Part shown: piece by piece, positions 1,778 to 47,145 of the stretch | How the letters are laid out: each line of letters opens with the position of its first letter | Numbering within the stretch: the first letter of the stretch is position 1 | Origin: Dictyostelium discoideum | Taxonomy: Eukaryota | NCBI GenBank assembly: GCA_000004695.1 | Contig: CM000153.2 | Location: 4,672,001-4,736,000 of the forward strand | Direction of reading: 5' to 3' | Length of the DNA stretch: 64,000 nucleotides | Program-made: the position numbers and the translations under genes | Notes under the pieces: generated by a model | Seen by the model: only the letters and a program-made list of their open reading frames with translations | Databases searched by the model: none | What the model was told of the DNA's origin: nothing

Positions 1778-2548
1778 GTTATTATTTTTATTATTATTGT
1801 TATTATTACTACTATTATTACTCTTTAGCATTGATTCATCTAAAAATTGGCTATTGTTGTTTTGATCACCATTTTGGTGTTGTTGAAATTGAAACTCTTG
1901 ATATAAATGATTAATTGGTTGACCATTTTTATCATAAAATATTTCCACTTGAGTTGCTGATTCATTATATATACTACTATTATTATTATTATTATTCTCA
2001 AATATTAAATCACTATTATTACTACTACTTGTATCACCTCTACTATAAATTGAATATTGATTTCTATCTTCATTAAATTCAACTTTTGATTCTCTACCAC
2101 TTAATTTATTTATACTATTATTATAGTTATTATTATTATTATTGATATTGGTGTTATTACTGTCAATACTATTATTATTATTATTAATTTTCTTTGATTT
2201 GGTTGATGAGGAGAATGTTAAATTATTACTATTTATATCATTTTCATCATTTATTTCGTCATTATTATCGCCATCATCATCATCAATAAATAAAGTACTA
2301 TTATGTGTATTGTTATTATTATTACTACTACTATCGTTTCTATTTATATCCCCACCATCATTATTGTTATTATTATTACCGTTATTTATATTTTTATTAT
2401 TATTATTATTATTTTCAGAAGAGGTACTACTTGTGAAAAATGCAAATTTTGAAGGTGTATTCTTTAAAGAAGAACGTAGTTGTTTTGATGAGGATGTGGA
2501 AATAGAATTTTGATGATTTTTATGAATTGGTGTAATTGTTGAAAATGG

Positions 2549-44642: not shown

Positions 44643-45095
44643 ATTTATTGTTTTTCTTTTTTTTTTTTTTTTATTTATTATTTATTTATTATATATAATT
44701 TATTTATTTTTTATTTTTTTTTTATTATTATTATTTTTAGTAATACACCTGAAAATTAAAAAATTAAAAAAAATTCTAATACTAGGAAATGATAAAATCT
44801 AATAAGCACAATGATAAAATAGTGTGTGCAATGTATTTTTTAAGAATTTTTTTTTTTAATATAAATCACTAAACTGAAATGTGAAAAAATAAAGAAAAAA
44901 AAAAATAAAAAAAAAATAAAAAATAAAGAAAAAAATAGTGTTCGTTGAAAAATTAAATAATGAAAAAAAAATAGGAAAAAAAAATCAAAATATCTTTACA
45001 TTTGAAAAAATTAGAAAAAAAAAAAAAAAAAAAGATCAAAATATCTTTGTTTTTGGGTGGGCATTTTAAAAAAAAAAAAAAAAAACTTATATTAT

Positions 45096-46707
45096 TTATT
45101 TAGAAAAATATTGTTGTTGATTGTATTGTTGACGTTGTGGTGAATTTTGTTGTTGTTGTTGTTGTTGTAGTTGTTGTTGATTTTGTCTAATTATAAATTG
45201 AACTTTTTTAACTGTTGCTCTAATAATGAATTGATCTCTACTTAGTGATCTAACATTTTTAAGGTATTCTTCCAAAGATATTCTATTTGAATGTAATGCT
45301 TTATCTAAGTAGTAGAGTAAATCTTCGATGGTTGAATCATCAGAGACCAATTTTAACAATTGTTTTGAGAGTGAATCTTTAGGACCCAATATTTGATCGA
45401 TATCAATATTTGAATCTGATTTATCATTTTCGTTTATCCATTTCTCCAATTGTTCAATGTTTTCATTCAATTGATCGATTTGACTATTGTAAGTTGCCAA
45501 TTGATTCGATAACTCCTCCTTCTCAAGTAATTTTTTCTTTGATAACTCTTCCAATGATTTGTTATGAGCTTCGAAATCCTTAATCTCTAATGATGTAGTG
45601 TCATAAAATTTCGATAATAATTCTTGCAATTTAATTGTACATTGATCAACCATTTCACTTTTTTTATCAATAACTGGTTGTGGTGGTAAAGGTGGTAATG
45701 GTTTAACTGATGGTGATGTTTGTTGTTGTTGCTGTTTTGCTGCTGTTGGTTCTGTATATGCTGGTGGTGGTGATGGTTGTTGTGGTGGTGGTATTATATT
45801 ATTATTTTGTTGTTGTTGTTGTTGTTGAGTTGGTGGTGGGGGTGGTGATGTTTGTGGTTGTTTTGGTGGGGGTAAAGATGATGTATTATTAGTTTTATTT
45901 TTAATTGAATCGTACGATGGTGGTGGTTGTGTATATGATGAGGAATTTGAAGTACTTGGTGATGAACCATATGGTGGTGGTGGTTGTTGTTGTTGTGCTG
46001 CCACATTATTATTGGTTGGTGATGAACCATAAGGTGGTGGTGATATATTATTTTGTGGTGGTTGTGGTTGTTGTTGTTGTGATACTCTTGTCTCTAATGG
46101 TGGTTTAAAACTAAATGCATCACATAACATTTTTTAACAATGACCCATCGTTGAATTGGAACTCCAACTTGATATATATGGATGATAAACTAATCCCTGT
46201 AAATTTACATGGTGATGATTTTTTACAATCCTCATCTCTGGTGTTGGATCTAAAACCATTGTTGGGAATTCTTGTGGATAGTTTAATGGTACCCAAACTA
46301 TAATTGGTAAATAATAATTAATACCTTTAAAACAAATTGGAATTGTACCTTTTATACATATTAAATTAACTCTATCTTTAATAATAATTTTTAAAAATAA
46401 AATAGTGAAAAAAAAAAAAAAAAAAAATAATATAAATTATAAAATTAATAATAAATTTTTTTATTTTTTTTTTATTTTTTTTTCTTTTTTTTTACTTACT
46501 TGGTATATTTTCATAAAACGGTGATAAATTTGGGAATAAATGAAATGTTTCTTTTAAATCTTTACTTATTCTTAGTGGATCTCTATAAGCTCTAATATAA
46601 TTAAGAAAAGTTGATAGAGTATGCATTTTATTATCCACTATGGCTAAAGTTGGATTAACCATTTGTTGTTGATGTGCATGCATTGGGTATCCATGATGAC
46701 CATACAT
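45096..46707 (-). CDS. tsg101: TSG101/Vps23 (ESCRT-I) homologue: UEV domain, Pro/Gln-rich linker, coiled coil and steadiness box. Exons 46707..46500 and 46375..46137, with an in-frame TAA at 46136..46134, then 46130..45096.
   Basis: UEV exon 2: carried codon N, then …RVNLICIKGTIPICFKGINYYLPIIVWVPLNYPQEFPTMVLDPTPEMRIVKNHHHVNLQGLVYHPYISSW…. C-terminus …LLKLVSDDSTIEDLLYYLDKALHSNRISLEEYLKNVRSLSRDQFIIRATVKKVQ matches the TSG101 steadiness box. The two parts are co-linear and in the same frame but separated by TAA (…STMGHC*KMLCDAFSFKPPL). Confidence 0.6.
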
Positions 46708-46899
46708 TCTATATATCTATTGATTGGTGTAGTTTATTGAATTTATTTTATATGGTGGTAGTGGCTGTGTTAAAAAAAAAAAAAAAAAATAAATAATACA
46801 ATTTTTTGAGGGTAAAATAAAAAATGAAAAAAAAAAATTATGATTTTATATTTATATATGACCTTTTAAAAGGAACTATATATATATATTCACCTGTTT

Positions 46900-46942
<43 letters not shown>

Positions 46943-47145
46943 GCCAAAAAAAAAAAAAAAAAAAAATTAAAAAAAAAAAAAATTATTAAAATTTATTTTA
47001 TTTTATTTTTAATTTTTTTTAACTCAAAAATTTGAAATTATTATTATTTAATTTTATTTTTTATGTTTTTATTTTTTTTTTTTTTTATTCCATTAAAGCT
47101 TATCTCTTTTATTCAATAATTCTTCTTAATTAATAGCTCTTATTT

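Follow-up and report, generated by a model that had tools for sequence, protein, structure and literature searches.

The tsg101 gene of Dictyostelium discoideum (DDB_G0286797) encodes the Tsg101/Vps23 subunit of the endosomal sorting complex ESCRT-I and lies on the minus strand of the 64,000-nucleotide (nt) stretch of DNA analysed here (contig CM000153.2 of assembly GCA_000004695.1, positions 4,672,001 to 4,736,000; referred to below as the window). The reading frame of the gene contains a single in-frame TAA, and the reference gene model skips this stop by treating the 51 nt around it (46144..46094) as an intron. What is skipped in this way resembles coding DNA and shares homology with orthologous coding sequence, and the orthologue from Cavenderia fasciculata has no intron at this site. 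All of the properties that were tested argue against the interval being an intron, and it is very probably coding sequence. With regard to the stop codon, we consider the chances to be about even that it is a base-call error in the reference, the true codon probably being TTA, and that the intron is an artefact of gene prediction.

The stop codon and the reference model

Read on the minus strand, the codons around the interruption are ...TCA ACG ATG GGT CAT TGT TAA AAA ATG TTA TGT GAT GCA TTT..., with the TAA at 46136..46134. The stop is followed by an A and falls at the junction of a pair of T and a run of six A (TGTT, then AAAAAATG). Upstream of the stop, the in-frame junction of 46707..46500 with 46375..46137 yields a 149-residue product that matches the Pfam UEV domain (PF05743) with 104.3 bits, and the score increases to 110.9 bits once the segment after the stop is added. 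Downstream, the frame runs on from 46133 to the terminal stop at 45098..45096 and contains a 344-residue open reading frame (ORF) starting at 46130. Residues 247-309 of this ORF match Vps23_core (PF09454) with 88.7 bits, downstream of a Pro-rich linker and a coiled coil, and structure models predict a long helix. The gene thus carries one stop in about 1.5 kb of coding sequence that is otherwise intact, with both halves collinear with their orthologues; judged from the sequence, a chance pattern is not the explanation for the split gene.

The identity of the locus was established from published primers. A wound-repair study (PMC7226253) lists four primers for the tsg101 knockout arms, and all four match the window at 100%: L_F at 46707..46680, L_R at 46534..46501, a third primer at 46250..46217 and R_R at 45995..45970. 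The two primers around the 51-nt interval, R_F and R_R, have the sequences GATCCAACACCAGAGATGAGGATTGTAAAAAATC and TATGGTGGTGGTGGTTGTTGTTGTTG. The study numbers its primers on the cDNA and gives the right arm as 334-563, whereas taking intron 1 alone out of the window puts this arm at 334-614, which is 51 nt longer. From this difference it follows that the database coding sequence (CDS) is 51 nt shorter between 46250 and 45970.

Removal of both 46499..46376 and 46144..46094 from the window yields a product of 478 residues that is identical, by exact-sequence look-up, to EAL64154.1, XP_637568.1 and Q54LJ3. The matched entry is named 'ESCRT-I complex subunit tsg101' of D. discoideum AX4, encoded on a contig of 5,450,249 bp, and the same model is found in GenBank, RefSeq and Swiss-Prot. 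As annotated, exon 1 (46500..46707) starts with Met1, ends on base 1 of codon 70 and encodes the N-terminal UEV helices, as supported by its translation, by the identity with Q54LJ3 and by primers L_F and L_R. Exon 2 (46145..46375) encodes the UEV core, as its Pfam match indicates, and ends ...SSWSSNSTM plus a G. The annotated 51-nt intron (46094..46144) begins GTCATT and ends CATTAG, and reads G-H-C-*-K-M-L-C-D-A-F-S-F-K-P-P-L in frame 0. Exon 3 (45096..46093) encodes the Pro/Gln-rich linker, the coiled-coil stalk and the Vps23 core, and includes the terminal TAA at 45098..45096; it too is identical to Q54LJ3. Since the spliced product of the window equals the annotated protein, whose model must skip the site, it is very probable that this TAA is also present, and masked, in the AX4 reference itself.

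The preliminary description of this stretch had identified a TSG101/Vps23 gene with a TAA in frame between the UEV domain and the rest of the protein. The codons, both domain matches, the primers and the identity with Q54LJ3 bear out its gene assignment, its exon coordinates, its frame and its collinearity with TSG101. It had also stated that no plausible intron removes the stop and had proposed a comparison with the AX4 reference. The AX4 model does use a 51-nt GT..AG interval for this purpose, so the statement fails as worded, but the interval does not look like an intron in the tests described below. The comparison itself turns out differently from what had been anticipated, as the spliced products are identical and the model skips the codon.

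Pairs of GT and AG that span the stop and restore an open frame were enumerated with a search floor of 30 nt. The interval 46144..46094 is the only in-frame interval of 51 nt over the stop and the shortest option found; it has the termini of an intron and its removal restores the frame. Intervals of 54 and 60 nt were set aside, as their products are in no database by exact look-up, and the longer in-frame intervals remove still more of the UEV domain.

Coding character and homology of the skipped segment

Eight confident introns in the window, each flanked by long open coding-like sequence, were used as the comparison set. They are 65-136 nt in length with 3.7-9.7% G+C (90-96% A+T), whereas the candidate has 51 nt and 72.5% A+T. 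Its G+C fraction of 0.275 compares with 0.058 +/- 0.019 in the confident introns (z = 11.7). All eight confident donors have GTA at +1..+3 (GTAAGT in four, GTATGT in three and GTAATT in one), and the candidate donor, GTCATT, has C at +3. Genome-wide, the 17,300 introns of D. discoideum are 89.1% A+T with a median length of 103 nt (PMC2483917). The branch motif WCTRAY is absent from 46144..46094 when the sequence is read directly. Additionally, the segment was scored with a codon-usage model against a Markov model of introns, both trained on the window. Its 16 sense codons score +27.5 bits in favor of coding, where coding sequence scores +34.6 +/- 14.2 and the maximum among intron 48-mers is -12.7. 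The candidate therefore falls within the coding distribution and far above every intron 48-mer.

An exhaustive HMMER search with the 79-residue exon-2 peptide returned 1396 relatives. The closest distinct relative is the Tsg101 of Cavenderia fasciculata (XP_004354981.1; gene in GL883023.1), which shares the domain order of the D. discoideum protein, about 45% overall identity (51% over the UEV core) and the position and phase of intron 1. The D. discoideum segment (YISSWSSNSTMGHC, the stop, then KMLCDAFSFKPPLETRV) aligns with Cavenderia YLSSWTWQSNISQAVKYLCDVYSGYPPLVSKS gaplessly in frame 0, with 13/32 residues identical; the matches include K-x-LCD, S and PPL, and inside the annotated intron 33/51 nt are identical to Cavenderia coding DNA. 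The two genes differ at the stop itself, which aligns with Val132 (GTA) of Cavenderia. The Cavenderia gene has no intron at this site, its sole intron being intron 1.

Intron 1 of D. discoideum (46376..46499) is genuine, with 124 nt, GTAAGT...AAG termini, 4.8% G+C and phase 1. The Cavenderia intron (2142..2279 of the Cavenderia stretch that was compared) is given as 135 nt with GTATGT...TTTTAG termini, and it interrupts the same codon (Asn) in the same phase. Intron 1 is thus older than the split of these dictyostelid groups.

The Pfam UEV profile separates the variants of the protein poorly, and a family-specific profile was therefore built from 152 homologues. Against this profile the frame-0 product scores 159.0 bits with Leu at the stop and 157.6 bits with X, the annotated spliced product 135.6 bits and the 149-residue truncation 135.5 bits, so that keeping the 51-nt segment adds 22-23 bits. 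The segment is aligned through the PP motif in 122 of the 134 homologues long enough to judge. Three residues, F139, P143 and P144 (numbered as in Cavenderia), are conserved, each occurring in at least 90% of 36 aligned sequences. The last UEV helix with F-x3-PP in frame 0 (M..C.KMLC.AFS..PPL) fits the homologue columns. In the reference, however, the TAA breaks this helix, and the annotated model removes it.

Structural comparisons agree with this placement. AlphaFold models the segment of Cavenderia Tsg101 as a helix (128-141) with a predicted local distance difference test score (pLDDT) of about 97, followed by the PP turn. For the annotated D. discoideum protein the prediction shows no more than a short helix (146-153), with block-mean pLDDT falling there to 71-50, and confidence across the whole UEV domain is lower than in the Cavenderia model. 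The human TSG101 UEV domain (PDB 1KPP, 3P9G, 3OBQ and others) and yeast Vps23 are also close to the D. discoideum domain; the human UEV structures are matched with E about 5e-13, and the alignment extends to the last residues of the crystallised domain. Residues about 125-141 of human TSG101 (...LLGLIQVMIVVFGDEPPV) are the counterpart of the disputed segment. The human protein has no interruption at this site, and the D. discoideum linker differs from it as a much longer Gln/Pro-rich tract. The annotated AX4 protein (Q54LJ3), identical to the window product once both intervals are removed, differs from the reading presented here in that it treats as an intron what we read as 17 stop-interrupted residues of the UEV domain.

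In human TSG101, the position of the stop corresponds to the Ile of GLIQVM, as seen in the alignment to the human UEV structures; the earlier placement at LIQVM was thus accurate. The corresponding homologue column is hydrophobic (V 30%, L 19%, I 18% and C 16%). One-base neighbours of TAA encode Leu, Gln, Lys, Glu, Ser and Tyr, and Leu (TTA) is the only one that fits the column. The change from TGTTTAAAAATG to TGTTAAAAAATG is a single T/A difference where the T run meets the A run.

Three nt after the stop, an ATG (46128..46130) opens the 344-residue ORF (46130..45096). The AAA ATG directly after the stop, within AAAAAATG, is an A-rich context of the kind typical of Dictyostelium start codons. 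In the alignment this ATG is an internal Met on a V/I column of the homologues, and its position right after the stop is probably a coincidence, as far as the sequence goes. It would be relevant only as a site of reinitiation, if the stop is real.

Explanations for the stop codon

The reading that we favor, at roughly even chances, combines a base-call error with an annotation artefact. The locus would be the single functional tsg101 of AX4, with 46144..46094 coding for the last UEV alpha-helix and the F-x3-PP motif. One codon of this helix would read TAA in the reference in place of a hydrophobic residue, most likely Leu (TTA), and a T/A miscall of its middle base (46135) at the homopolymer boundary in the reference would be the most probable cause. 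Gene prediction would then have spanned the stop with the shortest in-frame GT..AG interval, which is the choice expected of a gene finder that maximises coding length, and this would have produced the 478-residue model. The true protein would have about 495 residues and a complete UEV domain. We infer from these comparisons both that the TAA is erroneous, and not a genuine allele, and that TTA was the original codon. An assembly error or a strain-specific nonsense mutation had been the leading option in the preliminary description, and this option holds up. In Ax2, tsg101 knockouts abolish the recruitment of GFP-Vps32 and Vps4-GFP (GFP, green fluorescent protein; PMC6329560, PMC7226253). Lab strains therefore make a working Tsg101 that includes the C-terminal core.

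Several points weigh against an error in the reference. Two laboratories used 'tsg101 cDNA' and mentioned no mismatch with the database CDS. Substitution errors are rare in finished Sanger sequence. The Pfam UEV profile by itself hardly separates the variants (110.9 vs 109.3 bits). Finally, the strongest local RNA structure of the mRNA is found right after the stop, which an error does not predict. This structure is a stem-loop at 46072..46129 (minus strand) with an 8-bp core (46124..46117 and 46085..46078, UGUGAUGC/GUAUCACA) plus extensions. It begins 9 nt after the stop, and its loop has the annotated 3' splice site on its border. Its energy is -13.6 kcal/mol (z = -3.8), 1/300 shuffles being as stable, and among 50 windows along the tsg101 mRNA the 112-nt one immediately 3' of the stop has the lowest z. 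By eye, the arms of the hairpin are not conserved in Cavenderia. The hairpin is unexplained, and it keeps alive, at low probability, readthrough of the stop or an influence on splicing.

Searches for an independent copy of the site had little to offer on either side. Exact look-up of 20 conceivable products (read-through versions with each one-step amino acid, 387-residue genomic ORFs, ORFs of 149, 344, 71 and 41 residues, and other splice variants) found only the annotated protein, a result that is uninformative as the 71-residue exon-1 control ORF was also absent. A word-indexed protein search with both halves gave no matches and is untrustworthy, since it also missed the AX4 and Cavenderia proteins that are in the collection. 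A search for contigs encoding the 344-residue ORF or the AX4 protein found none, and no independent copy of the site turned up in a metagenome protein scan or when metagenomes and prokaryote genomes were scanned for exact DNA patterns. A literature search found no report of the size of the Tsg101 protein, of its cDNA sequence or of a reference-sequence error at tsg101, and the PLoS Pathogens study of the knockout contains no blot of Tsg101 (PMC6329560).

The alternative that survives best, though we regard it as unlikely, is that of a genuine TAA and true splicing of the 51 nt. As the segment has kept its coding-like character, splicing would mean the recent intronization of a piece of exon with a nonsense mutation, leaving a Tsg101 that lacks the last UEV helix. 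The in-frame GT..AG termini are consistent with this, as is the agreement of the spliced model with the GenBank, RefSeq and Swiss-Prot models, and lab strains have a functional gene. The hairpin has the annotated 3' splice site on the border of its loop, and would possibly help the removal of the 51 nt through weak splice signals. The coordinates of the published cDNA-derived knockout arms also fit the spliced CDS (PMC7226253), but the cDNA numbering of that paper may come straight from the database CDS. The agreement of the databases is likewise open to a simpler reading. The EAL accession (EAL64154.1) presumably dates from the original genome submission, and given this date the annotated model probably reflects gene prediction and not transcript evidence.

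The properties of the candidate itself also speak against splicing, as it stands out by its length, its composition and its donor (C at +3) and has no WCTRAY branch motif. Splicing would remove the helix and PP motif kept by 122/134 homologues, and Cavenderia is intronless at the site. Part of the human TSG101 segment that matches the skipped piece reportedly contributes to the PTAP pocket, in work ascribed to Pornillos et al. in 2002. It is said that Catania and Lynch, and Irimia et al., put forward the hypothesis that exonic sequence can be intronized after a premature stop. The tsg101 segment resembles such a case in being coding-like, with a premature stop and in-frame GT..AG bounds. It is unlike that hypothesis in that the splice signals are weak and the element removed is a conserved structural one.

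It is also unlikely, in our estimate, that the TAA is a genuine nonsense mutation of recent origin, confined to the sequenced AX4 stock or lineage and without rescue, the intron again being an annotation artefact. AX4 would then make a UEV fragment of 149 residues, and reinitiation at the ATG 3 nt beyond the stop would yield little C-terminal fragment at best. A single lesion in intact, codon-optimal coding sequence fits a very young mutation, and the ATG directly after the stop has a good A-rich context. Reinitiation after an ORF of 149 codons, however, is generally inefficient. A knockout phenotype was reportedly described by Blanc et al. in 2009 in DH1-10, an AX3 derivative related to AX4, and this counts against a private allele. 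Phenotypes of the knockout have indeed been reported in several axenic backgrounds. The viability of tsg101 nulls is in line with such an allele (PMC6329560, PMC7226253).

Programmed readthrough is improbable. The UAA would be real and conserved within the species, and part of the ribosomes would pass it with the help of the stem-loop, giving full-length Tsg101 alongside a free UEV domain. The frame past the stop is open and homologous, the spacing of the stem-loop is about that of known stimulators, and its region is the most structured of the 50 mRNA windows. A UAA followed by a purine, however, is the least leaky context, leaky ones being UGA or UAG with CARYYA or CUAG; the context here is UAA AAA AUG, with neither CARYYA nor CUAG. 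The stop stands on a buried hydrophobic position of the helix, where the usual near-cognate insertions (Gln, Tyr and Lys) fit poorly. Neither the stop nor, by eye, the hairpin arms are found in Cavenderia, which has a sense codon (GTA, Val) at the site. A literature search found no case of readthrough in Dictyostelium. Firth et al. reportedly described in 2011 readthrough stimulated by stem-loops, of the alphavirus and coltivirus type, at UGA or UAG in leaky contexts and with phylogenetic conservation. The arrangement in tsg101 is similar, with a stop, a stable hairpin after about 8-9 nt and an open functional frame downstream. It differs from those conserved viral cases in having UAA-A within a conserved helix and a stop that is absent from the nearest available relative.

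Two compensating frameshifts, with a base missing near 46153 and an extra base near 46122, are very improbable and were rejected, as the profile, the Cavenderia orthologue and parsimony all favor frame 0. The true sequence would then follow the -1 frame (...SNS-NDGSLLKNVM-DAFSFKPPL), which is open exactly between about 46153 and 46122. NDGSLLKNVM resembles the human SDLLGLIQVM, and against human TSG101 alone the -1 frame scores 57.2 bits vs 52.7 bits for frame 0. Two indels would be needed, however, in place of one substitution. The 152-homologue profile slightly favors frame 0 (157.6-159.0 vs 155.2-156.3 bits), and Cavenderia clearly does (BLOSUM62 scores of 90 vs 79 or 69, with a conserved LCD). 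Over the whole set of homologues neither frame is preferred (mean difference -0.8), and the resemblance of the -1 frame to the human helix is therefore put down to chance. The overlapping -1 frame at 46122..46153 (minus strand), with its NDGSLLKNVM, could mislead searches for frameshifts.

A decaying pseudogene with a functional paralogue elsewhere, an option of the preliminary description, finds no support, as there is one lesion in about 1.5 kb with the domains otherwise intact, and knockouts have phenotypes, losing ESCRT-III/Vps4 recruitment (PMC6329560, PMC7226253). Ribosomal frameshifting is dismissed since, past the TAA, a TAG closes the +1 frame after 14 codons and a TGA closes the -1 frame after 5, so that only frame 0 continues.

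Other features of the locus and consequences for Tsg101

The Vps23 core, or steadiness box (Pfam PF09454), lies at about 45392..45204 on the minus strand. The Gln/Pro-rich linker (about 45750..46045, minus strand) holds four PPxY-like motifs, namely PPPSY, PPPAY and two near-repeat copies of SPPPYGSSP. To judge from their sequence, these are possible docking sites for WW-domain (Nedd4-type) ligases. No PTAP motif was seen by eye in the linker. The flanks of the gene (46760..47000 and 44900..45090) carry very long homopolymers of T and of A, up to about 40 nt, at 6-13% G+C, typical of Dictyostelium intergenic DNA. ARAGORN found no tRNA genes in the whole 64-kb window.

At the protein level, the alternatives differ in their peptides. 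The disputed segment, if translated, would give the tryptic peptide MLCDAFSFKPPLETR (or ...GHCLK), and the spliced junction would give NHHHVNLQGLVYHPYISSWSSNSTMETR.

If the TAA is indeed an error that gene prediction bridged, the reviewed Swiss-Prot entry and the RefSeq model of Tsg101, an ESCRT-I protein in wide use, lack 17 residues of the UEV domain, those of its last helix and of the F…PP motif; that the reviewed 478-residue sequence lacks them is, in our assessment, probable. Constructs made from the database CDS, such as GFP-Tsg101, antigens and interaction domains, would then carry a damaged UEV domain, and a construct made from a genomic fragment would end at codon 150. It is a matter of speculation whether the loss of these residues might fit the weak and short-lived foci published for GFP-Tsg101. 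Recombinant antibodies have also been described that did not detect the protein, in a paper that does not name their immunogen. The finding is a matter of curation for one gene and not a new mechanism, and it would be of wider interest only if the intronization or readthrough of the UAA were real. If the intronization were real, the ESCRT-I of D. discoideum would work with a Tsg101 UEV domain that lacks its last helix and PP motif.

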